From positions 1 through 64,000 of the IMG/VR virus record IMGVR_UViG_3300045539_000120: DNA of 64,000 nt; one strand, 5' to 3'. Below are positions 17,078-43,731 of this stretch, in pieces; the stretch's first letter is position 1, and each line of letters begins with the position of its first letter. The stretch is from a virus. The notes beneath the pieces were generated by a model. The model was not told where the DNA came from. It saw nothing but the letters and a program-made list of their open reading frames with translations, and did no database searches. The translations under genes and the position numbers were made by a program.

Positions 17078-17677
17078 CTAAATTGTATGGTTTGTTTCAC
17101 TAATTATTTTATTTATAAAGAAATTATTGTCAAATTCAGGACGTTCTGGATGCCACTGTATTGCATAGATCCTTCTTTCAATATCTTCTATTCCTTCTAC
17201 TATATTTCCACAACTAACACTCCTATATGTTATTCTAAAATTATCTGCAATTATTGAACAATGTTGATGGTGTCTACTATTTACCATAAATGAACCTCCA
17301 TCCTCATCTTCAACTAAATGGTATTGTGAAGCTCTTTCACCATGGTCATTGTCATCTTCAAATGAATCCAACCTATGGGATTCTTCTGCCTTTTCATTTA
17401 AACTATTTACCATTCCTCCGAAATAAACATTTAATATTTGCATACCTCGACAAACTCCAAATATTGGTTGTCCATTTTCAAGTGCACTTCTAATCCAATT
17501 AAATTCTAATCTGTCTCGCTTTTTATTTACACCAATATCTGCACCTCCACATAATAGTAATGGTTGGTTAATTGTGGTAATTTCAGGGGTCAATACGGTA
17601 TATTTAAGGCCATGTTGATTTAACCATTGTATATAAAGTTCCAATTCAGATGAACCTCTCGGTGGTGCTATAAACAT
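17078..17677 (-). CDS. class I glutamine amidotransferase-like protein (peptidase C26 / gamma-glutamyl hydrolase-like)
   Basis: catalytic Cys context GVCRGMQ and His context IQWHPE. Confidence 0.7.
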   Translation of the reverse strand: MFIAPPRGSSELELYIQWLNQHGLKYTVLTPEITTINQPLLLCGGADIGVNKKRDRLEFNWIRSALENGQPIFGVCRGMQILNVYFGGMVNSLNEKAEESHRLDSFEDDNDHGERASQYHLVEDEDGGSFMVNSRHHQHCSIIADNFRITYRSVSCGNIVEGIEDIERRIYAIQWHPERPEFDNNFFINKIISETNHTI

Positions 17678-17889
17678 TACTTCTTCTTTTTATCGTCACC
17701 TGGTGACTTTAAAATTCTTAAATAGAAATCAGTATCTTTAATACATTCCTCGCAATATGGTGCATAATATTCTCCTTTATCTTCAGGAACTCCTCTATGC
17801 ATTTTTCTTACTACAGTGTACATTTCCTTTGTAATAAATTCATCTAAACAATTTGCACATACCGTGGTTGATACTACTCTTTTTGCCAT
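17677..17889 (-). CDS. zinc-ribbon hypothetical protein
   Basis: CANC...CEEC pairs. Confidence 0.35.
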   Translation of the reverse strand: MAKRVVSTTVCANCLDEFITKEMYTVVRKMHRGVPEDKGEYYAPYCEECIKDTDFYLRILKSPGDDKKKK

Positions 17890-17900
17890 TTTAAATATTT

Positions 17901-18140
17901 TTATTTTGCGTAATTTCTATCTAATAAATCATGCCATGTTAATACTCCAACTAAATGTGGAAGTGAATATGAATCAGTGTTCATTTCCCAATCTCCATCA
18001 AAATTAGTAAATTGAATCATATAACAATCTTCTAAAATTGTTATTAAACATTTATCATTTGCCCATTTATTAGGGCAAACATTTTTGAATGAGTTTCTAC
18101 CTAAGAAACTTTCCACATAAGGATTAACAATCTCTTCCAT
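17901..18140 (-). CDS. hypothetical protein
   Basis: 79-aa ORF. Confidence 0.35.
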   Translation of the reverse strand: MEEIVNPYVESFLGRNSFKNVCPNKWANDKCLITILEDCYMIQFTNFDGDWEMNTDSYSLPHLVGVLTWHDLLDRNYAK

Positions 18141-19419
18141 TTTCGTATATTGCTTTAACTGTTGGAAATCTTAAACTTGTTCCACCATTTTGGTTGTGAG
18201 TTTCTTCGAAATATTGGACACATATTTGTTTTCCAAGAATTTCACTAGGATTTTCGAAATAATATCTTTTTTGTTCGTGTGTAAATCCACTACCTACTTG
18301 TACTCTACTTCCTTTATGTTCTATCACAACATTTTTCATCATTAACTCTTCAACTTCTTTTCCATCTACGATAACTCTGTTTAATGCATTTTCAATATCG
18401 ACAACCACATATTCTGCATCAAAGAATTGTTTAACCTTTAAGATATCATTGCTACGTTTTCCTTGGTAAGTTGCATCTCTACGTAACATTAATCCTTCCC
18501 AACCATTTTCTTTAGCTAATTGACTATAGTATGTTATCATTCTCTCATCAATTAGGATTTGTTGGTCTAAACATCCAATATTTTTAAATTCTTTTTCAAA
18601 GAATAAATTATCTAATTGCACATTTCTAATTGAAAATGGAGTTGTTCCTTCCTTTGTAACAAATTCATCCATCGATAATATATCAAACATATAAAAGAAT
18701 GGATTCTCAATCGTATGGTCTTTACGTTTAATTTCTTTAATGATACCTTGGAAATTCTCATTTCCATTTGCATCCATCATACAAATTTCTCCATCAATTA
18801 CCATATTCTTTAGACCTAATGAAATTATTTCAGCATCTAAATTTTTAAGTGTTAGAAATTCATTTCCTCCACGTGAAAAATACGTAGGTTCACCTTCCGC
18901 ATCGATAATACAAATACATCTACAACCATCTAATTTTCTACTAACATACCAAACATCTTTGTCCATGTCAACTTTCTTAGCGGTTTTTTCATCGTATGAA
19001 TTTGCCAAAGCAACATCAAATGTTGGAATCAAGTTTGGAATAACTTTATTAACCATTGAAGCAGTAGAACGTGTTTTTAAATTTCTATCAATAATAGAGA
19101 AAATTAAATCCTCGTGCTTTTTGTTTGCTTCTACAAATCCATTTACTAAACTAATTGCCAAGTGACCTGTGATAAATCGTATTGATAAATCATCTAACAA
19201 TTTAAAAAGATCGCTATAACCATATTTGATTAAGTTTGAATTCTTTTTGCAATTAGCAGAAGTTACTCCATATTGTTTAAACGTATTGTAAGTATATTCT
19301 AAAGCATTACGAACTGCTTCATTTTCTGAGTATTGTTTTAACACATTTAATTTATCAGTGTTTGAGTTTGTAGAATTTTGTGCATCTACGAATTCTTGTA
19401 TTTGTTCTAAATTTGTCAT
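18124..19419 (-). CDS. ATP-dependent DNA ligase
   Basis: adenylation motif I RKLDGCR (KxDGxR), motif IV-like EGLMLR, motif V-like LKVK. Confidence 0.6.
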   Translation of the reverse strand: MTNLEQIQEFVDAQNSTNSNTDKLNVLKQYSENEAVRNALEYTYNTFKQYGVTSANCKKNSNLIKYGYSDLFKLLDDLSIRFITGHLAISLVNGFVEANKKHEDLIFSIIDRNLKTRSTASMVNKVIPNLIPTFDVALANSYDEKTAKKVDMDKDVWYVSRKLDGCRCICIIDAEGEPTYFSRGGNEFLTLKNLDAEIISLGLKNMVIDGEICMMDANGNENFQGIIKEIKRKDHTIENPFFYMFDILSMDEFVTKEGTTPFSIRNVQLDNLFFEKEFKNIGCLDQQILIDERMITYYSQLAKENGWEGLMLRRDATYQGKRSNDILKVKQFFDAEYVVVDIENALNRVIVDGKEVEELMMKNVVIEHKGSRVQVGSGFTHEQKRYYFENPSEILGKQICVQYFEETHNQNGGTSLRFPTVKAIYENGRDC

Positions 19420-19502
19420 AATTTGTTTGTTTTAATTATAATGTAAATATAACTATTAACTTTGACCCGTGAAACATTTATTTGATAAAGTTATTAACAA
19501 TG
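19420..19502 (-). promoter_or_regulatory. conserved intergenic element copy
   Basis: atttgtttgttttaattataatgtaaatataactattaactttgacccgtgaaacatttatttgataaagttattaacaat. Confidence 0.5.
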
Positions 19503-20041
19503 TTCTTTATATTCATTAGATGTTTATTTAATTCAGGATTTGAAGATTTCTTAACATTCCATATTTGGTACATTTTAATCCTATTGAATTTGAATATTTG
19601 AGGGAACACCATCACTCTTAAACGTATCCAGAGTATATTCAGGGACTTCCACATTAATGATTTGGGTGAAGTTGATGTAACAATTACTCCAAGTTTCTTG
19701 TCCTCTAGGAGACCCTTACCATCCTTAAATGCAAAGTTATTAATGAAAACTTGGTCAATAAATCCTTCGATTAGTGGAGATAATGAGAGCCATCTACTTG
19801 GTGAGATTATCCAAATATGTTGTGATGTTTTTATTAGGTGTCGATATGATTTTGCGAAAGCATTATCGTTTATTTTAGAAAGATCTCCGACGAACGATGA
19901 TGGATTATAACCATCAAGATAGAGATCCACTACTTGGACATAATGTCCCTCCTTATTATAGCACATCCTAATCGTTTTTAAGAGTTTGGTATTCTCAAAT
20001 GAAGTACGATCTGGATGTGCTATAACTATAAGGCAATTCAT
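19478..20041 (-). CDS. flavodoxin-like NAD(P)H-dependent oxidoreductase (NQO1/azoreductase-like)
   Basis: N-terminal MNCLIVIAHPDRTSFEN pattern typical of the Flavodoxin_2 family. Confidence 0.5.
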   Translation of the reverse strand: MNCLIVIAHPDRTSFENTKLLKTIRMCYNKEGHYVQVVDLYLDGYNPSSFVGDLSKINDNAFAKSYRHLIKTSQHIWIISPSRWLSLSPLIEGFIDQVFINNFAFKDGKGLLEDKKLGVIVTSTSPKSLMWKSLNILWIRLRVMVFPQIFKFNRIKMYQIWNVKKSSNPELNKHLMNIKNIVNNFIK

Positions 20042-20367
20042 TATTTTTTTAGGTAGTTTCTATAGCTAATTGTTCTTTTTGCAATAATTTCAAGGCGAGA
20101 TTCTGGATTCATTTCCATAATTCTTTCAACAGATTCAAAATAACTTCCTTTTCTCCATGAAGATTCCTTTTTAGATACTATGGTTTTATTCAATTGATAG
20201 ATTCGAATATAACGACTTCCGGTTGTTTCTCTTCTTCGAACATAACCACTTTCATAACTTAGATAATCACATTTAGCAATTGGGTCATGAAAACATTGAG
20301 TTCCATTGTTTGCTTGGCGTTGACTCGTTACTTCGATTAATCCTAATACATTTAATTTACTTGTCAT
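20041..20367 (-). CDS. hypothetical protein
   Basis: 108-aa ORF. Confidence 0.4.
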   Translation of the reverse strand: MTSKLNVLGLIEVTSQRQANNGTQCFHDPIAKCDYLSYESGYVRRRETTGSRYIRIYQLNKTIVSKKESSWRKGSYFESVERIMEMNPESRLEIIAKRTISYRNYLKK

Positions 20368-20368
20368 A

Positions 20369-20432
20369 ATTTGTTTGTTTTAATTATAATGTAAATATAA
20401 CTATAATATTTGACCCGTGAAAACTTTTTTGC
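20369..20432 (-). promoter_or_regulatory. conserved intergenic element copy (no GTTATTAACAAT module)
   Basis: ttgtttgttttaattataatgtaaatataactataatatttgacccgtgaaaactttttt. Confidence 0.45.
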
Positions 20433-20546
20433 AATTATTTTTTATTTTTTTTATTGATAATATTTCCATTATCATCTACCTCAGGTGCTGCCCGAATTGC
20501 AAGTACAATCCATATTATATATATGACAGCTATTAATAAAATACCC

Positions 20547-20885
20547 TTAAGCATTAAATATTTTTACAATAATCTTTACACAAATCATTTTAAATTTAGA
20601 AGGTTTATGTCCCCATAGGATTTGCTCTTCCACATCACATACCCAATCATATAGTGGAGTACTTAGATATAAAATATCCCAATTTACGAATCGTACCTTA
20701 GTACGTTCTGCTCCATTTGGTAATCTAAACTCAATTGACAATAATGAATATGGTCTATGGTCTTTAACTATTTCACAAAGTGAAAATCCCCAACATTCAT
20801 CTCCATCGTGCAAATAAATGTCAAGTAAATTAAACTTAAGATTCCATTTTCTAGTTGCCCATGATATTTTCTGTAGTAGTCCCAT
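20547..20885 (-). CDS. hypothetical protein
   Basis: 112-aa ORF. Confidence 0.4.
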   Translation of the reverse strand: MGLLQKISWATRKWNLKFNLLDIYLHDGDECWGFSLCEIVKDHRPYSLLSIEFRLPNGAERTKVRFVNWDILYLSTPLYDWVCDVEEQILWGHKPSKFKMICVKIIVKIFNA

Positions 20886-23401: not shown

Positions 23402-24046
23402 TTATTCGTGGTGGTCCTTAAATGCAAACATGGATTTAACAGGTTGTTTTTGCATGATTGAAAGAACCTCACGTAATTCAATTGGTTTTAAATCATTACC
23501 ATCAACTCCGACATCCATCATTCTCCCTGGACCTAGTCTTCTACCTTTTGGTAAATGAACATGGCCATGTAAATGCATAACCCCTTGTCCCATATCTTGC
23601 CAACTTGCCATTGGATAGTGGCTTAATATAAATCTGTTCTTTTGTGCAGGAAGGTTCTTAGAAATTGCCTGTATTACCACAGTAACATATAGGTAATGAT
23701 TAACACTTAAGAAATTATCTCTAACATCTTCCTTGTTATTTTCAATATGATGGTCATGATTTCCTAGGATTAGGTGAATATTTTTACAAACTATTCGGTT
23801 TCTAAACTCAGATATTTTCTCAATTCCACCAAAACTCCAGTCACCTAGGTGAATCAATATGTCATTCTCTCCTACTGTATTGTTTATATTATCTACCAGA
23901 ACTTGATTCATCTGGTGTAACGTATTGAACTCACGTGTTCCTCTTGAACCATCCCATTGGGAGATACCTCCACATATATTGGTGTGGTTATAATGTGTAT
24001 CACTTGTAAAAAATACCCTTTGTCCTTTTTCTACTACTATTTTCAT
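23402..24046 (-). CDS. calcineurin-like metallophosphoesterase
   Basis: SDTHYNH, HLGDWSFGG and LGNHDHH motifs. Confidence 0.75.
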   Translation of the reverse strand: MKIVVEKGQRVFFTSDTHYNHTNICGGISQWDGSRGTREFNTLHQMNQVLVDNINNTVGENDILIHLGDWSFGGIEKISEFRNRIVCKNIHLILGNHDHHIENNKEDVRDNFLSVNHYLYVTVVIQAISKNLPAQKNRFILSHYPMASWQDMGQGVMHLHGHVHLPKGRRLGPGRMMDVGVDGNDLKPIELREVLSIMQKQPVKSMFAFKDHHE

Positions 24047-24416: not shown

Positions 24417-25262
24417 TTATTTGATACCAATCATGGAATTTGTTTTGTCACCTAGCATTGTTTCAGGTAATTTACCATTCCATTTGTTAATCCATTCTAA
24501 TTGAAGTAGCATTGGTGTGATGGTTTTTTGTTTTAAACTATTTGCCTCAGCCTCAGCTCTTGCAGATGCCAACATTGCAGCGGCATTACCGTTTGCAGTC
24601 GCAACTTTAATTTTAGCTTGTGCCTCTGCTGTTTTAACTTCATTTTCTGCTCTTAATGCTGACTGTACTGCATTGTTCTTAGCTTCAATTGATCGTTTAA
24701 ATGTCTCTGGATAAATTAAGTTTGATGTAAATTGATTAATAACGAATCCCTCTTTAAGTAATTGTCCTTCAAGTAATCTTCGTACTTCTACTTCAAACAC
24801 TGCACGATTTGAAATTAATTCGTCTGCTGTATATTTATTAGTAGCTAAACGGAATGCATCATAAACTGCTGTTTTTAAGAATCCTTCCTCGATTTCTGGA
24901 AGAGATCTACGATATTTAGCAAAAATTGCTGGTACTTTTTCTGACCTAACAGAGTAATTCATAATTGGAGAAACGCTAAATTCAGAACCATCCTTTGAGT
25001 TTACAATAAATGAATTATCTACTTCTTCGGTTTTCTTATATTCTTTATGTTGAATATAAGTTGGAAACTCATAAATTTTTGTTGAAATTGGATTAAAAAA
25101 TACAACTCCAGTACATGCCGTAACATCATCTACCCCTTTACCACTTCCATAAAGGTTAACCTTTACGCCAACATGTCCTGCATCAATACGCTCACATGAA
25201 AATACTAAAAATACTGATAAAAATACTACCGAAATAATTGCAATAATTGATTTAATTGTCAT
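24417..25262 (-). CDS. SPFH/band-7 (stomatin/prohibitin-like) membrane protein
   Basis: N-terminal TM segment then an Ala/Glu-rich coiled region (AEAQAKIKVATANGNAAAMLASARAEAEA) typical of SPFH C-termini. Confidence 0.5.
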   Translation of the reverse strand: MTIKSIIAIISVVFLSVFLVFSCERIDAGHVGVKVNLYGSGKGVDDVTACTGVVFFNPISTKIYEFPTYIQHKEYKKTEEVDNSFIVNSKDGSEFSVSPIMNYSVRSEKVPAIFAKYRRSLPEIEEGFLKTAVYDAFRLATNKYTADELISNRAVFEVEVRRLLEGQLLKEGFVINQFTSNLIYPETFKRSIEAKNNAVQSALRAENEVKTAEAQAKIKVATANGNAAAMLASARAEAEANSLKQKTITPMLLQLEWINKWNGKLPETMLGDKTNSMIGIK

Positions 25263-26209: not shown

Positions 26210-26917
26210 TTATATAAATGTGATTTCGTTTGTTTCAGGATTCCAATCAAATGTTACTGGTTTGTTATTATATTCATATCTCTCGTTTAATATAGATGCA
26301 TTAAAGAAATGTGTTCCATTATGAAACTTATAACCATATCCACCATGAATGTGTCCAAATACATGAATCTTAGGTGGTTGTTCATCTACCTTTTCTCTAA
26401 GTAATGCACATCCTAAATGAGGTTCATTGTATGGAGGACCACTAACATCTAAATGGTCTTGTGGTGGTCCATGTGTAATAAGAATATCAGTATCTTTAGG
26501 AATTGCTTCCCATTTTGACATTAATCCTGGACCACCCTTTGGTAAGTTAAATGCCCAACTATAAAATTCAGGTTGCCAAGGACTACCGTAAATAACTGTT
26601 TGCTGATCGTCTTGATCCCATAGATCTAATCTGTTATCTTGAAGATATTCAATGTTCTTAAAAGAAGTATAAATCTCACTTGCCATTTCTGGGTCATTTT
26701 CAAAGATTCTGTCATGATTCCCAGCAATAAACACCTTCGTATCGTATTGGTTTAAACTGTCGAACCATTTACAGAATTGATGAATATCCACTGGATTTCT
26801 ACCAGAATTCATGATATCTCCGGCATGAATTAATAGGTCTCCTCCTGGTAAATCTTTTGGATCGTAAGATAACTCATCATGTTTTGTGTGAGTGTCAGAA
26901 ATTAGTGTAATTCTCAT
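26210..26917 (-). CDS. calcineurin-like metallophosphoesterase
   Basis: SDTHTKH, HAGDIMNSG, AGNHD and GHIHGG motifs. Confidence 0.75.
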   Translation of the reverse strand: MRITLISDTHTKHDELSYDPKDLPGGDLLIHAGDIMNSGRNPVDIHQFCKWFDSLNQYDTKVFIAGNHDRIFENDPEMASEIYTSFKNIEYLQDNRLDLWDQDDQQTVIYGSPWQPEFYSWAFNLPKGGPGLMSKWEAIPKDTDILITHGPPQDHLDVSGPPYNEPHLGCALLREKVDEQPPKIHVFGHIHGGYGYKFHNGTHFFNASILNERYEYNNKPVTFDWNPETNEITFI

Positions 26918-27251: not shown

Positions 27252-27749
27252 TTATTCTACGTCTTTTAATTCTGTTCTTAATCTACCAATTGCAGACTCC
27301 ATTGTATTATAGAGTGGGATATTATATCTGCTGCAAACTATATCTACATTACCTTTACGATAAAATCCATCTGGACAACATACTATTATTTTACATGAAG
27401 TAGCATACAATCCAAGTTCTAATAAACTAATTGGACTCTTTGTTTCTGGTGAAAAGTACATGAAAATAATGTCAGCTTTGTCAAGGTGGTCTAATTCCCA
27501 ATTAACTTGTTCACTAAATTGAGGACTGGATTCTGTTTGTTCCCAACTAGAATCCCAATCATTGCGTCTAGGATTTAAGAATATCAATTCTTCGCGATCT
27601 TTAAATATTTGTGGAATTACAGCTTGCCAATCTTCGGCTTTACCCATTTCTATAGAACCCGCTAAGAAAATAGTGGTATTATTACTTAGTGCTTCTTTAT
27701 ATGGTGGTTTAATTACTTTCATTTTTGTTTGTGTATTATATTTGTACAA
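27252..27749 (-). CDS. nucleoside 2-deoxyribosyltransferase-like protein (Rcl/NDT family)
   Basis: IFLAGSIEMG N-terminal motif and overall length and architecture. Confidence 0.5.
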   Translation of the reverse strand: MYKYNTQTKMKVIKPPYKEALSNNTTIFLAGSIEMGKAEDWQAVIPQIFKDREELIFLNPRRNDWDSSWEQTESSPQFSEQVNWELDHLDKADIIFMYFSPETKSPISLLELGLYATSCKIIVCCPDGFYRKGNVDIVCSRYNIPLYNTMESAIGRLRTELKDVE

Positions 27750-27994
27750 TTTCCTTTATGTGAACCCCATTGAAAGTTACCCATTCCAACTACAATATAT
27801 TCACAACCTTCAAGAGTGTATGTCCTATAAGTTCTATCAGAATATTGTGAAGTACTATCTAATTCGTAACGACTAGCACTAGTATTTTGATGTGGGTCTT
27901 TATAATTTTCTGGTTTGCAGCTAGTAACCATAAAGATTACTAGTGCAGCCAAGATTATTATTATTAATGGTATGGGTGAGTTTTGTCTATTCAT
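27719..27994 (-). CDS. small secreted or lipoprotein-like protein
   Basis: hydrophobic N-terminus ending VTSCKP. Confidence 0.35.
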   Translation of the reverse strand: MNRQNSPIPLIIIILAALVIFMVTSCKPENYKDPHQNTSASRYELDSTSQYSDRTYRTYTLEGCEYIVVGMGNFQWGSHKGNCTNIIHKQK

Positions 27995-29493
27995 TATAGA
28001 TTAGTTAAACGTTTTCTAATTTCTGTCAAAGTAGTTTGGTTTTCTAATTGGCCATTGATATAGATAGTTTTTAACATTCCTTTACTCTCATCTTCCCATG
28101 AGCATTGATCGACTAGCATATAACAATCGTTAATACTTTTATTAAAAATTTTAGCAACATGCAATAAACCTTTTGCAGATTTCTTAACACCATCATCTGT
28201 GATTGGATCTTTAAAGATTTCACGACCTTCGATTGTGTAAGCTGGACTTCCAGATTCTGCTGGATGTTTAACTTCTACATAGGTGGCTTTCATTGCAAAA
28301 CCAAATGTATCTCTAGTGTTATATTGGTATGTAAAACTTCCAACACCTAATACAATATTTGTACTTGCAAAACCTTTTGCCTCTAATCTTGTGAAGATTT
28401 GTTCAGCACGGTCTAATGTAATACTGTCTCCGTAGATTGCTCCAATATGAGGGTCTAATACTTTATAACCTTGGTCGTTAATAGTTCCACCAAATACATC
28501 CCAAAGTAATTCAATAACTCCTTTATCTTGTGGCATTGTTCCAGGAATACTGTACTCACAACCACAAATAATATCTACTGGATCACCAGAGTCAGGTCTA
28601 ATAACTACTTTACCATCACGGGCTAAAATCTCTTCTTTCAAAGTAACGATATGTTCGGTACAAACTTTCCATAAATCCCAAGTATCTGATACAATTGAAA
28701 GAATTCCTGTTGGATATGTTTCCATCAAGTTTCTAAATGTTCCAACCTCATCTTCTTTACTTCCAGCACACATCACTGAGTGTTCAGTCGCATTCACAGA
28801 TCCAGATACAAATCCAGTTTCATTATAGAATTTACGTGCTCCAAAGATTGCTGGTAAACTGTCTGAACCTGAGAAACTTGTCAAGTGACCTAATCCTGAA
28901 CTAATAGTTGCATCAATAGAATCCATACCTCTCATTGAGAAATCATGTGCTTGCCAATCTACGAACCAACCTTTTTCAGCATCAGTTTTTTCTTGCCATG
29001 AAGTAAATAATTTACGATATGCATGCGCAATAGTTGCAGAAGTCATTGGTTTCCATAACAGGTTAGAAATAACTGTTTCTAAATAATTTGTAATCCAATA
29101 GAAATCCGGATGTGTATTATAAATTGTCAATACTGGAACTCTCATTGGTACTAAACTACCTTCTTCAATTGATTTAACAACGATAGGCAAATAACCTAAA
29201 TCATGTAAAGCTTCGAAGTGAGATACGTCATAGTCTGTATTTAAATACATTGACAATTCATTTTTCATTTCTCCACAAACTTCATCTTTAGGTTTACTAA
29301 AGAAATCTTTTTCAAAAGCTTCGTGAATTTGTTTAACTACCATTTGTTGTCCAAATGATACTAATTGATCGCAACCTTGGGGTGCGTACTTATTACTACG
29401 AGGAGTAAAGTTAGAATAAACCAACGTTGTTCCTTTTGGATATTGTTGGTGATGTCCTGTTTTGTAACCGTCTGTTAAGAATAATGGATTCAT
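27994..29493 (-). CDS. nicotinamide phosphoribosyltransferase-family protein (NadV/NAMPT-like; could be a Namat-type enzyme)
   Basis: N-terminal NPLFLTDGYKTGHHQQYP signature and ~500-aa length. Confidence 0.75.
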   Translation of the reverse strand: MNPLFLTDGYKTGHHQQYPKGTTLVYSNFTPRSNKYAPQGCDQLVSFGQQMVVKQIHEAFEKDFFSKPKDEVCGEMKNELSMYLNTDYDVSHFEALHDLGYLPIVVKSIEEGSLVPMRVPVLTIYNTHPDFYWITNYLETVISNLLWKPMTSATIAHAYRKLFTSWQEKTDAEKGWFVDWQAHDFSMRGMDSIDATISSGLGHLTSFSGSDSLPAIFGARKFYNETGFVSGSVNATEHSVMCAGSKEDEVGTFRNLMETYPTGILSIVSDTWDLWKVCTEHIVTLKEEILARDGKVVIRPDSGDPVDIICGCEYSIPGTMPQDKGVIELLWDVFGGTINDQGYKVLDPHIGAIYGDSITLDRAEQIFTRLEAKGFASTNIVLGVGSFTYQYNTRDTFGFAMKATYVEVKHPAESGSPAYTIEGREIFKDPITDDGVKKSAKGLLHVAKIFNKSINDCYMLVDQCSWEDESKGMLKTIYINGQLENQTTLTEIRKRLTNL

Positions 29494-29575
29494 ATATTGT
29501 TTGTTTTAATTATAATGTAAATATAACTATTATATTTGACATGGTAAACATTTATTTAATAAAGTTATTAACAAT
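29494..29575 (-). promoter_or_regulatory. conserved intergenic element copy
   Basis: tattgtttgttttaattataatgtaaatataactattatatttgacatggtaaacatttatttaataaagttattaacaat (near-identical to the 6620 copy). Confidence 0.5.
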
Positions 29576-29576
29576 T

Positions 29577-29780
29577 TTAATTTTTTCTAATTCCTGTTAC
29601 CATTACATATTTAAACGTTCCATTTGATAAAAACGTATGTTGAATAAATGTTACCTCGTATGTTGCGGCTTTTTCCATTGTTATTAATTCATCTATTAAT
29701 GGTTTTTCAACTTCGCAAATAAAATCATGTTCGCAAACACCTTTATTCATTAGGATAAATCTACACTTCGTCATTGTCAA
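29577..29780 (-). CDS. hypothetical protein
   Basis: 67-aa ORF. Confidence 0.3.
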   Translation of the reverse strand: MTMTKCRFILMNKGVCEHDFICEVEKPLIDELITMEKAATYEVTFIQHTFLSNGTFKYVMVTGIRKN

Positions 29781-30564
29781 TATTTTTAGATGGGTTTAAC
29801 AATCCTCTAATAAAAAATCTGTCCTGGGTAAATGTTGGAGTTTCAATAACTTGCCATTTGTTTCTGGTAAAAGTTCCGTTATCATTTGTTGTTGTAACTT
29901 CAACTTTAGCAATCGCTCCTCCTCTTTTCTTACGGAAATCATAATCATTCCAATTAATTCCTTTTTGGAAGATAAATTCTTGCATTTGATCAGTTTTAAC
30001 TCCATGCAGTTCTTTAGTACTATAAAGGCTTTGTGCAACTGAAGAGATACTATTTCTTACAGCATCTTGCTGTCTCCAGATAAAATAGTTTTCTACCTCA
30101 TCAATAAATGGAATTTGAAATGCTCTAGCATCGAATTCTGCCATTCTCATTGCTTTAATATGCTCAGGTTCCAGAAATATTTGACTATTTCTCATCATCC
30201 TCATCATTCGGAGTCTGTTAAATTCTGAGGTTGCCATAGATGCAGCAACACTTACCATTTTCTGCAGATTATTGTCGAACCAAGCATGAGTTCCTAAGTC
30301 ATCAAAGTCTGTTAGGACTAAACTAATCTCATCTGATTGTACATAACCAAATTTAGCACCTTGAATATTCTTACAAAGATATGCAGTAGTTGCATTCATA
30401 TCTTCAATAAGACCCTCATCAAATGGTCTTGTTAATCCTTTAGTGTAAGTGTGGAATGCCTTACCATCAATTCTAATAATTGTGTAAGTTCTTCGTGGAA
30501 GTTTGATTCTAGTTCTATCCTCATAGAACTCTTTCATTCTGTCGCCAAGTGCGTCATTTTTCAT
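29761..30564 (-). CDS. Thg1-like protein (tRNA-His guanylyltransferase family, 3'-5' nucleotide addition enzyme)
   Basis: TIIRIDGKAFHTY, RPFDEGLIEDM and YVQSDEISLVL align with the conserved Thg1/TLP catalytic core (VVRLDGRNFH..., SDEYSFVF). Confidence 0.55.
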   Translation of the reverse strand: MKNDALGDRMKEFYEDRTRIKLPRRTYTIIRIDGKAFHTYTKGLTRPFDEGLIEDMNATTAYLCKNIQGAKFGYVQSDEISLVLTDFDDLGTHAWFDNNLQKMVSVAASMATSEFNRLRMMRMMRNSQIFLEPEHIKAMRMAEFDARAFQIPFIDEVENYFIWRQQDAVRNSISSVAQSLYSTKELHGVKTDQMQEFIFQKGINWNDYDFRKKRGGAIAKVEVTTTNDNGTFTRNKWQVIETPTFTQDRFFIRGLLNPSKNIDNDEV

Positions 30565-30644
30565 AATATATGTTATTGTGCAACCTTCGTGTGTTGGATG
30601 CTGGTTATGGTTATTATATAAGTATTACTTATTTTGTTTCAACA

Positions 30645-30893
30645 TTATACATAACATGCAAAATATTCATCTTCTAGCATCCAATTAAGTTGTGCTAATT
30701 TAATAGCATCTTCTTCGCTTAATATTTCAATTACATCTTCGGCATTAATACTATAAATAATATCATGTTCGGCTGCACAAATGACATTTTTTTCGGTGTA
30801 TTTTGCTAAAATTTGTAATCCTTGAAAGGCATTATCACCTTCCCATTTAGATTGTGTTTCTTCAAAAATCTCTTCTAATCTTTCTAGTGTCAT
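30645..30893 (-). CDS. hypothetical acidic protein
   Basis: 82-aa ORF. Confidence 0.35.
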   Translation of the reverse strand: MTLERLEEIFEETQSKWEGDNAFQGLQILAKYTEKNVICAAEHDIIYSINAEDVIEILSEEDAIKLAQLNWMLEDEYFACYV

Positions 30894-30895
30894 AT

Positions 30896-31369
30896 TTATT
30901 TAATTTGATTTTTAACTAAATTTAATGCTTGTCCTAAAAGGTTTAAACCTAACCAATAAGATGGGTCATCAATTCCTTCTGCATTTTCATCAAGTCCAAT
31001 ACCCCAAATATTATCTAATGGAGATGCTTCAACAAAAAAGCGATCACCTGTGTTTAACATTTCGTATCTTAATTCAGGATTTTGTTTGAATTTTGCCAAG
31101 TTTCCTTCATAAACAATTGCCAAACAATTTTTATCCCAAGTTGCTTTATCAAAATTTTGGATTTGTCTACCATATTTCTTTTGCTCTCTTGGATTCGTTT
31201 CTTGCATAATTTGTTCTGCAATATCTTCATCTCCAAATAACAATGCTTTTTGATGCATCATATATTGTTCACAAGAATTATATTCAATATTGTCAATTGT
31301 CATTGGCGCTTTATGCCATTGTGAGTAAATTCCATTCCAGAAAAATACATGTTTGTCTGTGATTTTCAT
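30896..31369 (-). CDS. NADAR-domain protein (YbiA-like)
   Basis: VFFWNGIYSQW...EQYMMHQKALLFGD...IWGIG pattern of NADAR/DUF1768. Confidence 0.65.
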   Translation of the reverse strand: MKITDKHVFFWNGIYSQWHKAPMTIDNIEYNSCEQYMMHQKALLFGDEDIAEQIMQETNPREQKKYGRQIQNFDKATWDKNCLAIVYEGNLAKFKQNPELRYEMLNTGDRFFVEASPLDNIWGIGLDENAEGIDDPSYWLGLNLLGQALNLVKNQIK

Positions 31370-31372
31370 TTC

Positions 31373-31945
31373 TTATGGTTTATAAATTACTACTGACACT
31401 TTCATGTCTTTTAGTTCTGTTTGAATAATCTTTTTAATTCTGTTCCAATCTCCACCCGCTAATCCTGCACCAATCTTTGGCAATCCAATATGTTTACCAC
31501 TAAATACATTATTGATTTTTCTCATACAAAGGGTTAGTGCTTCGTAATCCAAAGGTTTTGAAACTCCATCGGTATGATTCTTACCATAACGAAATTGGGT
31601 GTATGAATTCACAACCGATAATTCAGGTTCATTCAATTTATTGTCAGCATCCTCTAAAGACCAAATAGCATTTTCTCCAATAACGAATTCTTGCCAATCA
31701 ATACAACCAAGTTTTTCAATTGTTGCACCCCAAAGTTCCATTTCAAATTTATCAACTCCAAATGCCTTTGCCATTTGAGGTGCAATTCCAGCTCCCATAT
31801 TTGAAAGACAATTACAACCATGCGTAATTACATCAAAAGTACCTTGCTTTGCTAATGTAATTAAATCACCTTCAATTTCTTGATATGTTGTTTGTTCATT
31901 AGTTTCTATCGCCGATTTTATAAAATCATTAAGTTGTCTTTTCAT
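31373..31945 (-). CDS. macro-domain protein (ADP-ribose binding/processing)
   Basis: ITHGCNCLSNMGAGIAPQMAKAFG matches the macrodomain N.xN..L..G.G core. Confidence 0.6.
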   Translation of the reverse strand: MKRQLNDFIKSAIETNEQTTYQEIEGDLITLAKQGTFDVITHGCNCLSNMGAGIAPQMAKAFGVDKFEMELWGATIEKLGCIDWQEFVIGENAIWSLEDADNKLNEPELSVVNSYTQFRYGKNHTDGVSKPLDYEALTLCMRKINNVFSGKHIGLPKIGAGLAGGDWNRIKKIIQTELKDMKVSVVIYKP

Positions 31946-32457
31946 TATGCAAATCTAAATTGTTTTAAAAACTCTCTTAAGAATACGATTCTTCGAGCCT
32001 CTTGTTCATCAAATTTCATCATCCAATCCCAGTAGCTTGTTGCTTCTGGAGTTCCATCGACATAAAAAGTTCCATCATATTCTGGCCAAGTAACTTTGTC
32101 AAATACTCTGTCATCAACTAAAAAAACTACTGCAGTTAATTGGTCACCTAAATCTGGTTCAAAGAAACTACGAAATTGAACACCTTCGTCTGATAATAAT
32201 TGTCTATGATTATTTAAAGAACCGATATGGTCATGACCTAGCACAAACCTAGTGTTTGTTGTTCCTCCATTTAAAATGATAAAAGTTTTGTCTTCTTTGG
32301 CCCATTTCTGGTATTCTGGAGTTTCAAAAAACTCTAATCCATATTCTACAACAGCATGTCCAAACTGAATGCCTTGTTGGATTGGGCTTATGTTGTAAGG
32401 CACCAATCCATACATTCTATATGTTCTATTGCTCATTAGTAGTTTCCTCTGGAGCAC
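31945..32457 (-). CDS. hypothetical protein
   Basis: 170-aa ORF between macro-domain and PRS-like genes. Confidence 0.45.
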   Translation of the reverse strand: MLQRKLLMSNRTYRMYGLVPYNISPIQQGIQFGHAVVEYGLEFFETPEYQKWAKEDKTFIILNGGTTNTRFVLGHDHIGSLNNHRQLLSDEGVQFRSFFEPDLGDQLTAVVFLVDDRVFDKVTWPEYDGTFYVDGTPEATSYWDWMMKFDEQEARRIVFLREFLKQFRFA

Positions 32458-32568
32458 CTAGATCTGCCTCTACTTCAACTGATTGCAACTCATATCTTGA
32501 ACCTAAGATCGCATCTTGTACTAATACTAAACGGTCCACTGTTTCTGTTTTAATTTCTTTATTCATTT

Positions 32569-32784
32569 TTATATTAATTTTAAGTGTTTTAATTCCTCTA
32601 TTGCATCGTCAAATGCTTCTTGCCAAGTTCGGTGTAAATACCAATTTTTAATTTCGATTCTTTCGTAGTTTCCAAAATGTGTATACTTAAATATATCATA
32701 TGCATACTTAGGGGCACTCGTCTGGTCTAAACTTATTTCTATAATGTAACCACGTTCCGTATATAATGAATCAATGGTGTACAT
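32569..32784 (-). CDS. hypothetical protein
   Basis: 71-aa ORF. Confidence 0.4.
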   Translation of the reverse strand: MYTIDSLYTERGYIIEISLDQTSAPKYAYDIFKYTHFGNYERIEIKNWYLHRTWQEAFDDAIEELKHLKLI

Positions 32785-33680
32785 TATATTACCTTGAATG
32801 TTGTTGCGTTTGTTTTTTCTTCGTACTCATTATCTGCAATATCTCTGTGAGAATTTGTAGTATAAATATGTTCAAAGTATTGTGATAATTCTTTGAATCC
32901 AGCACTGAAAATACCATGTGTAACTATTAAATAAATCTTAGCACTTATTCTTTCATTCTTGATTGCTTTAGCTAATTCTATAAAAGTTCTACCGCCGTCA
33001 CATATATCGTCAATGATTACATATTTCATACCATCGTTAGCAGAGTTAGGGTCTCCAATAGATCCTGGTAAGTTTGGCAATTCAGTTTTAAGAATTTTAC
33101 CAGTTCTCATGTCTCGCACTTTATTTGCCGTAACAATATTTTGGATTTGAAACTTCTTAGCAACGTCGAAGATTTTCTTGTATGCTCCAGCATCTGGGCT
33201 TACTAAGCAAATTCTTTCTTGAGCATCTTTTCTATTATCAATTTCAGTAAGTGCATATTTAACTACAGTGTGATTATCTAATTTTTCATAGTTATTCAAA
33301 CATGCTTCTAAAACATCTGAATGTGGATCTAATGTAATTACCGTTACAAAATTTAAGGAATTAATAATTGGACAAATTACTTGTTTCAAATAATTAACTC
33401 CACCTTCAACAAATTTACGATCTGAACGAGCACCCATAAAGTATGGAACGTAAAGAGCAATTTCTCGATTTGGTTTAATATTTCTGATTGCTGCCGTTGC
33501 ACAAATAATTAATTCTAAATCTTTAAAACTATTTAAACGTGAACTAATTTTCACAGCATCTTCATATATTAATAAGTCATTCCATTCTATAAGGTCTACT
33601 GTTTGTTGACCATCTGGAAATTGACTAATTTTGTACTTGATTTGTGATTTTTCCGGATTAACTAAATCTAATGTTATCAT
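32784..33680 (-). CDS. ribose-phosphate pyrophosphokinase-like protein (PrsA-family; possibly ADPR-PP synthetase type)
   Basis: PRTase nucleotide loop VIIDDICDGGRTF and PRS-like N-terminal domain. Confidence 0.65.
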   Translation of the reverse strand: MITLDLVNPEKSQIKYKISQFPDGQQTVDLIEWNDLLIYEDAVKISSRLNSFKDLELIICATAAIRNIKPNREIALYVPYFMGARSDRKFVEGGVNYLKQVICPIINSLNFVTVITLDPHSDVLEACLNNYEKLDNHTVVKYALTEIDNRKDAQERICLVSPDAGAYKKIFDVAKKFQIQNIVTANKVRDMRTGKILKTELPNLPGSIGDPNSANDGMKYVIIDDICDGGRTFIELAKAIKNERISAKIYLIVTHGIFSAGFKELSQYFEHIYTTNSHRDIADNEYEEKTNATTFKVI

Positions 33681-41152: not shown

Positions 41153-41514
41153 GTACCGACTACAAGTTACGCTCTTGTCTGAAAATACTTATGAGATATT
41201 TTCGATCCTAGATCAAGTCGGCAATTATACTCCATACCCATCACGTTAAGGCTGATTATGGGCGACGCAACCTACGGTCAACTTTCGTTATGGAGTTTGC
41301 GGAAAGCAGAGGTATCGATCCCCATACCATTAAAGGTACGATTCGCTTAGCAAGCGGTCCTGAATCCTATTCAGTTTACTTTCCATTTAGAGAGACTTTG
41401 GGTCTTTCAGGGTTACTGGTTAAATGCAATGAGTGAGCTCTTCCTACTACTAACCCTTTTTCAGAAATTAATACACTCTACCTTTTAACTACAGCTTAAA
41501 CTGTCTCTCTATTG

Positions 41515-41594
41515 TACCCAGGGAGAGACTCGAACTCTCAAGCTTTCGCCACGGCTTCTAAGACCGCTGTGTCTACCAATTCCACCACCAAGGC
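41515..41594 (-). tRNA. tRNA-Leu(TAG), type II
   Basis: T-arm GAGAGTTCGAGTCTCTC, acceptor GCCTTGG/CCTGGGT (one mismatch), anticodon loop CTTAGAA, variable hairpin GCGAAAGC. Confidence 0.6.
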
Positions 41595-41691
41595 ATAAAG
41601 CCAATCCCGTAGATTGGCCGCTCAACTTAAGGTATTGAGTTTGCAAGAATAAATCTCTGACCAGGTCATGCGTCCTTTGGGCGCCGACAGT

Positions 41692-41763
41692 GACCCCGGT
41701 GGGACTCGAACCCACGACTCCCTGATTAAAAGTCAGGTGCTCTACCAACTGAGCTACGAAGTC
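41692..41763 (-). tRNA. tRNA-Lys(TTT)
   Basis: acceptor GACTTCG/CGGGGTC, D-arm GCTCAGTTGGTAGAGC, anticodon loop CTTTTAA. Confidence 0.8.
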
Positions 41764-41820
41764 TTGCCTTTTTTAGAGTTTTTATAGAACTCAAGGATAG
41801 TACAACCTATAAACTAAAGT

Positions 41821-41892
41821 AGCGGGTGAGGGACTCGAACCCCCGACCTTAAGCTTATGAGGCTCACGAGATACCAACTTCTACCAACCCGC
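41821..41892 (-). tRNA. tRNA-Met(CAT)
   Basis: acceptor GCGGGTT/CACCCGC, anticodon loop CTCATAA. Confidence 0.6.
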
Positions 41893-41903
41893 AATATATC
41901 TTG

Positions 41904-41975
41904 TAGTCAATAAAGGACTCGAACCCTTATTCCCGAGTTCGTAGCCCGGTGTTCTATCCATTGAACTAATCGACT
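41904..41975 (-). tRNA. tRNA-Arg(ACG)
   Basis: acceptor AGTCGAT/ATTGACT, anticodon stem CCGGG/CTCGG, loop CTACGAA. Confidence 0.75.
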
Positions 41976-41977
41976 AA

Positions 41978-42054
41978 TGGTGGTCCATTCAGGACTCGAA
42001 CCTGAGACCTACTGATTATGAGTCAGGCGCTCTAACCAACTGAGCTAAAAGACC
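41978..42054 (-). tRNA. tRNA-Met or tRNA-Ile2(CAT), CCA encoded
   Basis: D-arm GCTCAGTTGGTTAGAGC, anticodon loop CTCATAA, 3' ACCA. Confidence 0.65.
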
Positions 42055-42059
42055 ATTAA

Positions 42060-42470
42060 ATAATAAGTTGTTCCATACCGAACTATTAGGAACTATTAGG
42101 GCTTCTCGGACGAGGTGCACAACCCATAACGGCTATGATATGTTCTCTGTTACTTGGCTCCACCTACATGGATTAATCAGGAATCGAACCCACCTAATCG
42201 ATATATGCCTATATCAATGTTCACAGCATATCAACTTATCATTTTGCACAAGCAGAAGGGGTCGAACCTTCATCATCGGTTTTGGAGACCGGTATGCTAC
42301 CATTGCACCATACTTGTATTTTGTGGGAGATTATGGAATCGAACCATACCCTCTTACAGAACGATTTTACAGACCGCTTACATCACCAGATGCTGAAACC
42401 TCCCAAATTTAACTACCACCTGACTCCTTTCGAGCAGTGGAAACTCGTATCATTCAATTTTGGTAGTTAG
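42060..42470 (-). tRNA. tract of tRNA-like elements and fragments with aberrant arms
   Basis: several minus-strand T-loop signatures (RC of ggaatcgaacc, ggtcgaacc, ggaatcgaacc) without canonical full cloverleafs on hand-folding. Confidence 0.3.
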
Positions 42471-42471
42471 C

Positions 42472-42545
42472 TCCCCAGCTAGGACTCGAACCTAGGACCC
42501 CCTGATTAACAGTCAGGTGCTCTAACCAACTGAGCTACTGAGGAA
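42472..42545 (-). tRNA. tRNA-Asn(GTT)
   Basis: acceptor TCCTCAG/CTGGGGA, anticodon loop CTGTTAA, T-arm CTAGGTTCGAGTCCTAG. Confidence 0.8.
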
Positions 42546-42780
42546 TATTGTTGACTAATAAGGATTTGAACCTTAATCCTGTGTCCGCCCTCAGTCACTT
42601 CCGTACTTACTAACTTCTACTGTGCACCATACACCATAATCATTCCGAATGTTTCGAACCATTCAGTCTTAAGATTAATTACTTCTTAAGATTTGTTGCG
42701 ATTAGAGGAATCGAACCTCTCAGTGGTATATCTACCAAATCGTCTCATGAGAACGAACCTACACCGATATCGCAATTTAG
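42546..42780 (-). tRNA. tract of tRNA-like elements
   Basis: includes acceptor+T-arm minihelix TGACTGA...TAAGGTTCAAATCCTTA-TTAGTCA; a perfect 8-bp palindromic hairpin TCTTAAGA-agtaattaa-TCTTAAGA; further T-loop-like motifs. Confidence 0.3.
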
Positions 42781-42782
42781 TG

Positions 42783-42856
42783 TCTTTACATGGGATTCGA
42801 ACCCATACTCTTCGGGCTCAGTGCCCGCGTTCCAAACCAAGTTAAACTACGTAAAG
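42783..42856 (-). tRNA. tRNA-Gln(CTG)-like (4-bp anticodon stem)
   Basis: acceptor CTTTACG/TGTAAAG, anticodon hairpin CGGG-CACTGAG-CCCG, T-arm TGGGTTCGAATCCCA. Confidence 0.4.
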
Positions 42857-42954
42857 CAATCAATTAAAATTACAGAAATTAGTGTCGACAAATTTCTTTA
42901 AGCTATATGTAATCTTAATCGTTAGGAAGATATTGCTGATCAGGCATCTTCTTT

Positions 42955-43062
42955 GTAATTATGATTGGATTCGAACCAATTTCAGCTTTACAATAAAGAG
43001 TATATTTCAACTCAACCTTTGTGAGGTGCCGCCAACCAATGGCCTCATAATCATTTGTGGAT
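42955..43062 (-). tRNA. tRNA-like element with long extra arm and no readable standard anticodon
   Basis: acceptor GATTATG/CATAATT (G-U at bp 1) and T-arm ATTGGTTCGAATCCAAT. Confidence 0.25.
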
Positions 43063-43547
43063 AGAAACCAGACCTATCCTAGAGCTGCAGCTCTGTTATA
43101 ACTTATGCATCATCCTCAATGCTTCAACCCTTTGGCTATTACGGGTGTGGACTCGAACCACATTTTTCAGTTACCTATGCTTTTTCAAACTTGGTTTTAG
43201 TTGCTTTCCTTGCGCAAGGTTCATAACTAATTTCCAGTATCACCACGAGGAGGTGTTTGATTGATACCGCTACGCTTCGTTGGTACTTGCCGTTTCTTAA
43301 GTCGACACTTTCCCCGTTGCACGTTTTATTTAAGTGTACTTCCCTACTAGCGTCCTTGAAGCCAACACTTTTTAATTTGAGCTGCCTTATTACTAAGGTT
43401 TCGGATCGCATCTTTGATTAGGTAGCGAACCTATCATTAACGTCTCAAAGTAATTGTTAGTCTTTTCCTTACCTCTTAATAATTACACTGCCCGTCAGAT
43501 GTTACTGTCTGATGCTTACCAATCATACTGGGGTAATTATTAAATTG

Positions 43548-43619
43548 TAACGCCACGGAGAATCGAACTCCGATTTTTAGGATGAAAACCTAATGTCCTA
43601 ACCGTTAGACGATGGCGTC
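43548..43619 (-). tRNA. tRNA-Glu(TTC)
   Basis: acceptor GACGCCA/TGGCGTT, anticodon stem TTAGG/CCTAA, loop TTTTCAT, T-arm CGGAGTTCGATTCTCCG. Confidence 0.7.
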
Positions 43620-43651
43620 ATTTAAATTATTATCAAGATGTCAAATAACGT

Positions 43652-43727
43652 TTGTTCTAATTTGTTATGTAAATATAACTATAATATTTGAACCATGAAA
43701 ACTTTTTTCCAAAAGTTATTAACAATT
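43652..43727 (-). promoter_or_regulatory. conserved intergenic element copy heading a tRNA operon
   Basis: tgtcaaataacgtttgttctaatttgttatgtaaatataactataatatttgaaccatgaaaacttttttccaaaagttattaacaat; nearest downstream minus-strand feature is tRNA-Glu, no ATG. Confidence 0.5.
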
Positions 43728-43731
43728 TTTG

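Follow-up and report, generated by a model that had tools for sequence, protein, structure and literature searches.

The locus considered here raises the question of how a phage that carries a PrsA-like and a NAMPT-like gene would make nicotinamide adenine dinucleotide (NAD+): by conventional salvage through phosphoribosyl pyrophosphate (PRPP), or from ADP-ribose, as in the NARP1 pathway of NAD+ reconstitution (Osterman et al. 2024). The genes lie in positions 27252-33680 of a 64,000-nucleotide stretch of viral DNA (positions 1 to 64,000 of IMG/VR record IMGVR_UViG_3300045539_000120; hereafter the window). A preliminary description, made from the sequence alone, had recognized in this interval a nucleoside 2-deoxyribosyltransferase-like gene, a NAMPT/NadV-family gene, a NADAR domain, a macro domain, a PrsA-like PRPP synthetase and an interleaved Thg1-like gene, and had leaned towards NARP1. 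All of these genes are present on the minus strand, the interval running from the stop of the deoxyribosyltransferase-like gene (27252) to the start of the PrsA-like gene (33680), and the six domains named within these 6.5 kb are borne out by Pfam, NCBIfam and PHROG. Judging from sequence comparisons, the interval appears to encode a NARP1-type pathway, probably in its extended form, NARP1-AP; we put the probability of this reading at about 0.75.

The course of events that we envision is as follows. Bacterial NADases (SIR2, TIR or SEFIR effectors) would split NAD+ into ADP-ribose and nicotinamide. The PrsA-like protein, hereafter Adps-like, would convert ADP-ribose and ATP to ADP-ribose pyrophosphate (ADPR-PP), from which the NAMPT-like protein, hereafter Namat-like, would form NAD+ by addition of nicotinamide. 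The macro-domain protein would most likely return ADPR-1''-phosphate to ADP-ribose in the manner of the NARP1-AP enzyme Adpp. ADPR-1''-phosphate comes from RES-type NAD+ phosphorylases such as aRES, and the macro step would let the pathway counter these too. The outcome would be escape from SIR2, TIR, SEFIR and RES-type NAD+ depletion, with the NADAR and Thg1-like genes as co-located cargo outside NAD+ rebuilding. We infer the enzymatic steps and the anti-defense phenotype from the published biochemistry of homologues.

The Namat-like and Adps-like proteins

Namat enzymes are set apart from Nampts by an adenine "selectivity clamp" composed of a helix motif (SCH) and a variable loop (SCL). The SCH signature is GSX-phi1-X-phi2-X-phi3-TRD, where X is aromatic; the SCL adds one more stacking residue, which is Arg, or Lys/Tyr followed by a stacking residue (PMC12774641). 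The SCH of the window protein, GSFTYQYNTRD, conforms to this signature and is identical to that of the SPbetaL1 Namat. In its SCL, "PRSNKY", K35 aligns with R40 of SPbetaL1 and is followed by Y36, which puts the loop in the Lys-plus-next-residue class; the Lys-then-aromatic class has been assigned to Bas63 (PMC12774641). The loop would be expected to supply the residue that stacks on the adenine. In Nampts of the NARP2 type, those of a KVP40-like phage, a Slopekvirus and Brevundimonas phage Kabachok, the SCH site reads GGGLLQ..(D/T)RD and the loop is shorter. The catalytic core of the Namat-like protein is complete: F185, R188, D211, H238, R299, D301 and G355-D356, which comprise the Phe/Arg/Asp nicotinamide pocket, the catalytic His and the Arg306/Asp308 equivalents, are all invariant in the alignment.

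Overall similarity points in the same direction. The protein scores 587 bits with a profile of four NARP1-linked Namats and 271 bits with one of three NARP2 Nampts; it is 42-54% identical (BLASTP or alignment) to validated Namats and 28-31% identical to NARP2 Nampts. A small neighbor-joining tree places it in a clade of 100% bootstrap support with the validated Namats of SPbetaL1 and Gary, apart from the NARP2 Nampts. Among PDB entries, 9W5X/9W5W, which are the SPbetaL1 Namat according to the data-availability statement of the structure paper (PMC12774641), give 520 bits, as against 210 for the Nampt of Xanthomonas (Xcc) and about 180 for human NAMPT. General family matches (Pfam NAPRTase, 3.1e-35, and NAMPT_N, 9.5e-08; NCBIfam PRK09198, 536 bits with a cut-off of 405) fit either class: neither PRK09198 nor PHROG 448/619 tells Namat and Nampt, or Adps and Prs, apart, and they were not used for that distinction. 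On these data the protein does not belong with the KVP40-clade, PRPP-preferring Nampts that lack the clamp and define NARP2.

The Adps-like protein is a member of the Prs family by Pfam (Pribosyltran, 1e-06; Pribosyl_synth, 1.4e-05) and stands well away from housekeeping Prs. Its match to NCBIfam TIGR01251 (9e-23) amounts to 80.6 bits, below the cut-off of 113; the Adps references score 100-124 and Escherichia coli Prs 423. With PRK01259 it reaches 68.9 bits (cut-off 297) and E. coli Prs 533, and it falls far under the cut-offs of all 11 curated NCBIfam Prs models. An Adps profile reverses the order, giving 192 bits for the window protein and 108 for E. coli Prs. The four Adps references were those of SPbetaL1 (biochemically validated), Gary (validated as part of NARP1-AP), Bas60 and a Felix-O1-like phage. 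In an alignment, the window protein and the Adps set have DPHSDV, DDICDGGRTF and VTHGIFS where E. coli Prs has DLHAEQ, DDMIDTGGTL and ATHPIFS; the window protein has Adps-type substitutions in the ribose-phosphate loop. K187 of the window protein occupies an invariant column and corresponds to K162 of SPbetaL1 Adps, whose change to Ala abolishes NAD+ formation (Osterman et al. 2024). The PDB holds no Adps structure, and the best matches of the Adps-like protein there are Prs entries of at most 49 bits.

The genomic setting is that of NARP1. Osterman et al. (2024) recognize the pathway where a gene of the Adps clade has a Namat homologue within 10 genes; here seven genes on the same strand separate the two. 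Among cultured phages, Leptolyngbya phage Lbo-JY46 has the nearest homologues of both core proteins (46% and 49% identity), and two open reading frames (ORFs) lie between its two genes. Pfam detected none of the NMN adenylyltransferase (NMNAT), CTP_transf_like or cytidylyltransferase-like families in 68 ORFs of the 64-kb window (every minus-strand ORF with 110 residues or more, 64 in number, plus four small ones from the interval), and a tblastn search of the window with the Kabachok NMNAT/Nudix protein gave a best E-value of 0.076. The match, at 12672-12764, was rejected as a NatV-like protein, as it lies in an M42 aminopeptidase gene.

The preliminary description had argued for a NARP1-type pair rather than PrsA plus NadV from family membership and from the failure to recognize an NMNAT. 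The clamp motif, the Adps-type motifs and the profile scores agree with that choice, and the absence of a recognizable NMNAT held throughout the window. A comparison of hidden Markov models for Adps and Namat with those for PrsA and NadV, proposed there as a check, likewise came out on the NARP1 side. From their sequences, Adps and Namat very probably act together as NARP1.

The macro-domain protein

The Adpp of Vibrio phage Gary dephosphorylates ADPR-1''-phosphate, the product of the RES-domain defense aRES, to ADP-ribose; plain NARP1 fails against aRES and NARP1-AP overcomes it, and a macro-domain gene accompanies the operon in 15% of the phages that have NARP1 (10.64898/2026.01.28.702374, from the group that described NARP1). 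The macro protein of the window is matched weakly by Pfam (0.006, under the cut-off) and strongly by PHROG 335 (6.6e-43), a family that also includes Gary Adpp (148 and 171 bits, respectively). Over its full length it shares 34% identity with the validated Gary protein (KNV71_gp137), all conserved motif positions being kept, and its alignment with the homologue from Thalassavirus Cody is likewise full-length (BLASTP E-value 2e-15, 57 bits). Its score against DarG, 16 bits, places it far nearer Adpp. The PDB neighbors of the protein are BT1257, SCO6735, Poa1p, DarG and TARG1, and Gary Adpp retrieves the same set. The gene sits between those for Adps and Namat, both here and in most relatives, which is the gene context of NARP1-AP. 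Full-length homology to a validated Adpp makes it probable that the module is of this extended form.

Two metallophosphoesterase genes occur nearby in the window. The product of the one at 23402-24046 is 32% identical (E-value 3e-25) to a "phosphoesterase" encoded two genes upstream of the Cody NARP1-AP operon, and 44% identical to gp018 of Cellulophaga phage phi17:2; a second, unrelated Metallophos gene (26210-26917) lies downstream of the interval. An SPFH/Band 7 protein is encoded at 24417-25262, and a homologous family is annotated in phi17:2 (gp169). As phi17:2 also carries the closest cultured homologue of the macro protein, these two matches hint at a distant relationship and possibly at a host from the Bacteroidota.

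Gene organization and related loci

The interval contains eleven ORFs, every one on the minus strand (Table 1). In the order of transcription they are Adps-like, s71, u170 (PTH2-fold), macro, NADAR, s82, Thg1-like, s67, Namat-like, s91 and deoxyribosyltransferase-like. Five of them, u170 (170 residues, or 165 from the start used here) and the small ORFs of 71, 82, 67 and 91 residues, come in addition to the genes first described.

Table 1. Genes of the interval, in order of transcription
Gene product	Coordinates	Strand	Family, predicted role and context
Adps-like (298 aa)	32784..33680	-	Prs family; predicted ADP-ribose -> ADPR-PP; PHROG 619
s71 (71 aa)	32569..32784	-	1-nt overlap with Adps stop; conserved directly after Adps in most relatives
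u170 (~165 aa)	31945..32442	-	PTH2-fold hydrolase; 1-nt overlap with macro start
Macro-domain protein (190 aa), probable Adpp	31373..31945	-	PHROG 335; between Adps and Namat
NADAR protein (157 aa), YbiA-type	30896..31369	-	Pfam NADAR, TIGR02464; probable AdfN-like ADP-ribosyl-guanine DNA glycohydrolase
s82 (82 aa)	30645..30893	-	ORF only
Thg1-like (267 aa)	29761..30564	-	Pfam Thg1, PHROG 4717; 3'-5' nucleotidyltransferase family
s67 (67 aa)	29577..29780	-	20-nt overlap with Thg1
Namat-like (499 aa)	27994..29493	-	Predicted ADPR-PP + nicotinamide -> NAD+
s91 (91 aa), predicted small lipoprotein	27719..27994	-	1-nt overlap with Namat stop; PHROG 19356
Nucleoside 2-deoxyribosyltransferase-like (156 aa from ATG)	27252..27722	-	Pfam PF15891 (Nuc_deoxyri_tr2)

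Intergenic distances divide the interval into four translationally coupled blocks, namely Adps-s71, PTH2-like-macro-NADAR-s82, Thg1-s67 and Namat-s91-deoxyribosyltransferase-like, and these coincide with modules seen across relatives. The locus is thus a mosaic of four tightly packed blocks, neither a single metabolic unit nor a compact operon. The preliminary description had spoken of an NAD+ and ADP-ribose metabolism island; the clustering is real and the gene order recurs in relatives, and it is the notion of one metabolic unit that gives way. A terminator scan found no minus-strand terminator-like site in the interval and thus no obvious break in transcription; a scan for sigma-70 promoters returned fewer sites than in shuffled sequences and was uninformative. 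Of the small proteins, s91 has, in translation, a hydrophobic N-terminal stretch followed by Cys; s71 and s82 have no match in Pfam or PHROG, and s82 was not detected in relatives at E<=1e-5. The start of the deoxyribosyltransferase-like gene is the ATG called on a contig from NCBI.

No close cultured relative was found: a megablast search with the complete interval, run against 50,697 phage records, gave no match, and exact protein matches were limited to an 8-kb NCBI contig from a metagenome-assembled genome and a 1.6-kb Logan contig. Relatives were collected as 19 IMG/VR loci whose Adps is 61-92% identical to that of the window, and the window proteins were mapped onto them. Their stable frame is Adps - [s71] - PTH2-like - macro - ... 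- Namat - s91 - deoxyribosyltransferase-like, with Namat identities of 75-94% and s91 following Namat in most. The recurrence of the same genes in the same order in 19 related contigs indicates that the clustering goes beyond chance.

Departures from this frame mostly concern the genes between Adps and Namat. NADAR is found in just four loci (L006, L007, L011 and L023). Thg1 and s67 are missing from four identical loci of a 234-kb type (L008-L010 and L021), in which the order is Adps - PTH2-like - macro - Namat; s67 lies downstream of Thg1 in L012, L013/L014 and L017. L012 is devoid of both the PTH2-like and macro genes, L023 of the PTH2-like gene only. In L024 the order is Adps - deoxyribosyltransferase-like - Namat, the macro gene is missing and Thg1 is also absent from the interval. 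The interval is an insertion hotspot, the inserts reaching about 7 kb (L013, L017). When Pfam was run on the two unannotated genes between Namat and Adps of Lbo-JY46 and on the variable-region ORFs of L013 and L019, only a YqeY-like protein and a DNA ligase were informative. A YqeY/GatB-like gene occupies the macro-Namat slot of L013 (18169-18627), and another adjoins the deoxyribosyltransferase-like gene of Caulobacter phage CcrColossus (L038, 6533-6994).

The first half of the PHROG 12872 profile (547 positions) is matched by Adps and the second half by Namat proteins, which suggests that natural Adps-Namat fusions probably exist in some phages.

Alternative readings

The NARP1-AP reading is directly supported by clade and family membership, diagnostic motifs, the homology between the macro protein and Adpp, conserved synteny and the lack of an NMNAT in the window. 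Several observations weigh against it. Identity to the biochemically validated Adps is just 31-32%, the Adps/Prs comparison had E. coli Prs as its single cellular outgroup, and the choice between ADP-ribose and ribose-5-phosphate as substrate cannot be read from sequence. The Adps and Namat genes are 3.3 kb and seven genes apart, while in the characterized examples they are adjacent. Three related loci (L019, L020 and L022; positions 10001-20858) retain the genes for Adps, s71, the PTH2-like protein and macro, with no Namat within 10 kb; the deoxyribosyltransferase-like and Thg1 genes are also missing over that distance, and the deletion extends into the phosphoesterase and ligase region. Adps without Namat is otherwise rare (Osterman et al. 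2024). The search for an NMNAT covered 64 kb, and the whole genome is probably 165-256 kb long, the range reached by related contigs, among them IMGVR_UViG_3300042472_000628 at 165 kb and IMGVR_UViG_3300042563_003307 at 234 kb. Finally, the PHROG 335 macro family occurs in about 2700 phage records, many of them lacking an adjacent NARP1, and NARP1 genes do not adjoin the closest cultured homologue of the window macro, that of Cellulophaga phage phi17:2 (48%). With so broad a distribution, family membership alone is no proof of Adpp activity, and for these two reasons we put the odds that the macro protein acts as Adpp, as its sequence suggests, at only slightly better than even.

One could imagine that the pathway is plain NARP1 and that the macro protein removes ADP-ribose from macromolecules, be they DNA, RNA or protein, and so opposes, for instance, DarT2-like toxins, forming with NADAR a separate counter-defense pair. 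The two genes do follow each other in one coupled block, with a gap of 3 nt. TARG1, SCO6735 and DarG, all among the structural neighbors of the macro protein, remove ADP-ribose from protein or DNA; an NCBIfam DarG model matches its C-terminal 42 residues (1.8e-8); and a phage DarG2-like macro antitoxin has been described (PMC13309987). The wide occurrence of the family in phages without an adjacent NARP1 would also be explained. Against this stand the scores and the shared PHROG, which draw the protein to Adpp rather than DarG, and the fact that Gary Adpp has the same structural neighbors. Moreover, the macro gene keeps its place between Adps and Namat in relatives from which NADAR is missing (L008-L010, L021 and L013-L018). 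We regard this alternative as possible, if unlikely.

Conventional salvage, with PRPP made by the PrsA-like protein, nicotinamide mononucleotide (NMN) by the NAMPT-like protein and NAD+ completed by an NMN adenylyltransferase of the host or from a distant part of the phage genome, would follow the logic of NARP2. The Prs-like and Nampt-like labels given by Pfam and NCBIfam are compatible with it, PRK09198 being blind to the difference between Namat and Nampt; Namat enzymes retain some PRPP-dependent NMN synthesis in vitro (PMC12774641; Osterman et al. 2024); and an NMNAT was sought in the 64-kb window only. However, the Namat-like protein possesses the very motif and clamp that NARP2-type Nampts lack and scores more than 300 bits higher with the Namat profile, the PrsA-like protein misses every curated Prs cut-off widely and has Adps-type substitutions in its ribose-phosphate loop, and no NMNAT turned up in the window. 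In addition, SPbetaL1 Adps makes ADPR-PP from ADP-ribose and ATP and gave no measurable product when incubated with PRPP and ATP (Osterman et al. 2024; the legend of their Fig. 2D names ribose-5-phosphate as the Prs-type substrate tested). Salvage of this kind is therefore improbable.

That the cluster is an inactive remnant, in which insertions have uncoupled Adps from Namat and the pathway is decaying, would suit the hotspot and the losses of Namat (L019, L020, L022) and macro (L012, L024), and is extremely unlikely given that every ORF is intact, that the catalytic residues are conserved and no frameshifts or stops were seen, and that the Adps and Namat identities and the preserved order across relatives indicate purifying selection.

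Neighboring genes

The NADAR protein is an unequivocal family member (Pfam, 4.8e-50, 170 bits; TIGR02464, 149 bits) with homologues in 732 phage records, including the genus of Bas60 (about 36% identical). The phage NADARs tested to date all remove ADP-ribose from DNA guanine and neutralize DarT1, and that of Bas60 was shown to counter DarTG1 (PMC11257639). NADAR classes are told apart by whether the catalytic residue of the last strand is acidic or a His (PMC11125620); the window protein has, in translation, a Glu in "...FFVEASPLDNIWGIG" that by position would be the equivalent of this residue. By analogy, the gene is probably a separate counter-defense function that strips ADP-ribose from guanine in phage DNA and so opposes DarT1, and it is better explained in this way than as part of NAD+ synthesis. 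The earlier statement that the macro and NADAR domains process ADP-ribose can thus be sharpened for the first, a probable Adpp, and for the second would hold outside NAD+ synthesis.

The Thg1-like gene (Pfam Thg1, 5.8e-30; PHROG 4717, 1.4e-86) looks like a passenger, and fits the tRNA and RNA-repair set of the phage better than NAD+ metabolism. The window carries 24 minus-strand tRNA genes between 3527 and 54757, with clusters at 15110-15995 and 41514-45490, which cover 19 amino acids. No tRNA-His was found among them, despite the presence of this homologue of tRNA-His guanylyltransferase. The RNA-repair complement is encoded at 2025-3149, at 18124-19419 and in ORFs between 36339 and 63955, and includes an RNA ligase with a PHA02142 OB domain, an ATP-dependent ligase, a PNKP-type HAD phosphatase, a cREC_REC (cyclic-phosphate-processing) domain, a HAD_SAK_2 "Swiss army knife" domain, a PolyA_pol/CCA-adding head domain and an AAA_33 kinase. 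The window has a G+C content of about 31%, almost all of its genes lie on one strand, and it encodes a terminase and a tail sheath; together with the tRNA genes and RNA-repair domains, the latter two mark it as part of a large phage genome.

The remaining neighbors are the PTH2-fold protein (u170) and the deoxyribosyltransferase-like protein. The former has the PTH2 fold; it has no match at E<=0.01 to any family of Pfam or NCBIfam, those of PTH2 included, and its only assignment is to PHROG 3668, "hydrolase". Its gene adjoins the macro gene in most of the 19 related contigs. Distant homologues in cultured phages neighbor genes for tRNA nucleotidyltransferase or nucleotide metabolism, not NARP1. 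The deoxyribosyltransferase-like protein belongs to PF15891 (Nuc_deoxyri_tr2; 1.5e-34), matches an uncharacterized PDB entry (4mcj, 112 bits) and conserves the family Glu in "LLELG". The gene had been counted with the NAD+ genes; its presence is certain, and the tie to NAD+ comes from conserved position, the gene lying no more than about 1.5 kb from Namat in each of the eight distinct relatives for which sequence is available. The neighborhoods of its homologues in CcrColossus, Erythrobacter L02 and Xanthomonas X1 contain no NAD+ genes, which suggests that the link is lineage-specific, and in the literature on PF15891 (Nuc_deoxyri_tr2) we found no functional work tying the family to NAD+ or anti-defense. 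Another protein with a nucleotide N-glycosidase-like fold, of the LOG/SLOG type (Lysine_decarbox PF03641 plus LDcluster4), is encoded elsewhere in the window (13045-13716), between the M42 aminopeptidase (11955-13043) and a PD-(D/E)XK nuclease (13706-14470).

It is tempting to speculate that the PTH2-fold hydrolase and the deoxyribosyltransferase-like N-glycosidase are dedicated accessory enzymes of NARP1, paralleling Adpp and RyDEP, even if we consider this quite unlikely. They would turn other NAD+-derived defense products into ADP-ribose or nicotinamide; the candidate substrates are NMN, nicotinamide riboside, ADP-ribose signals in cyclic or conjugated form, and ADP-ribose that carries an acyl group or another modification. 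If true, NAD+ reconstitution would defeat a wider range of defenses. These two conserved neighbors are the only elements of the locus that might be new, and the evidence for them is synteny in one lineage.

Comparison with known systems

NAD+ depletion is among the commonest anti-phage strategies of bacteria, and the known ways in which phages answer it are mainly NARP1 and NARP1-AP. For Bas63, rescue from such depletion was shown in a pncC nadR double mutant, a host devoid of the enzymes that salvage NMN to NAD+. The present locus is a known system correctly called, not a new one, and it leaves the current picture of NARP1 unchanged. What it does is place the pathway in a lineage of uncultured large phages for which metagenome-derived contigs, of up to 256 kb, are the only source, and illustrate that the two core genes need not adjoin; scans that require an adjacent two-gene operon would overlook loci of this kind. 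The stretch from one core gene to the other acts as a slot that collects other counter-defense and repair genes, and the locus offers two candidates for further NAD+-related accessory enzymes.

With NARP2 of KVP40 (Nampt/NadV plus NMNAT/NatV) the locus has in common the Nampt superfamily and the purpose of restoring NAD+; it differs in the adenine clamp, in an identity of 28-31%, in the Prs-like partner and in that no NMNAT was detected in the window. The NADAR protein is a stand-alone domain like AdfN and the phage NADARs of T4 (gp30.3), Bas32 and Bas60 (Johannesman et al. 2024), and is set apart from T4 gp30.3, which is of the His type, by its YbiA-type assignment from TIGR02464 and the Glu in "VEAS".

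Mycobacteriophage DyoEdafos, which combines RyDEP with NARP1 (2026 preprint), provides a precedent for extra enzymes beside NARP1 that feed it ADP-ribose from NAD+-derived molecules. No RyR-domain protein was identified here; the candidates for such a role are the deoxyribosyltransferase-like and PTH2-fold proteins, whose link to NAD+ is positional.

The closest parallel for the macro gene is the NARP1-AP operon of Gary (Adps-Adpp-Namat; Osterman et al. 2026 preprint), where a PHROG 335 macro protein, 34% identical to that of the window, is likewise encoded between Adps and Namat. Unlike the Gary operon, the window locus is not a compact three-gene unit: the macro gene is preceded by the coupled PTH2-fold gene and followed by NADAR, and its closest cultured homologue, that of phi17:2, is not NARP1-linked.

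Compared with NARP1 of SPbetaL1, Bas63 and Bacillus phage FADO (Osterman et al. 2024), the window pair belongs to an uncultured large phage of 31% G+C, is spread over 3.3 kb and seven genes where the characterized pairs are adjacent, has an Adps 31% identical to that of SPbetaL1, and carries in its SCL the Lys-Tyr of the Bas63 class in place of the stacking Arg of SPbetaL1. Yet the essentials are the same: a Prs-derived Adps and a Nampt-derived Namat encoded on one strand, a Namat 51-54% identical to its counterparts with the very SCH of SPbetaL1, an Adps that keeps its catalytic Lys, and no NMNAT nearby.

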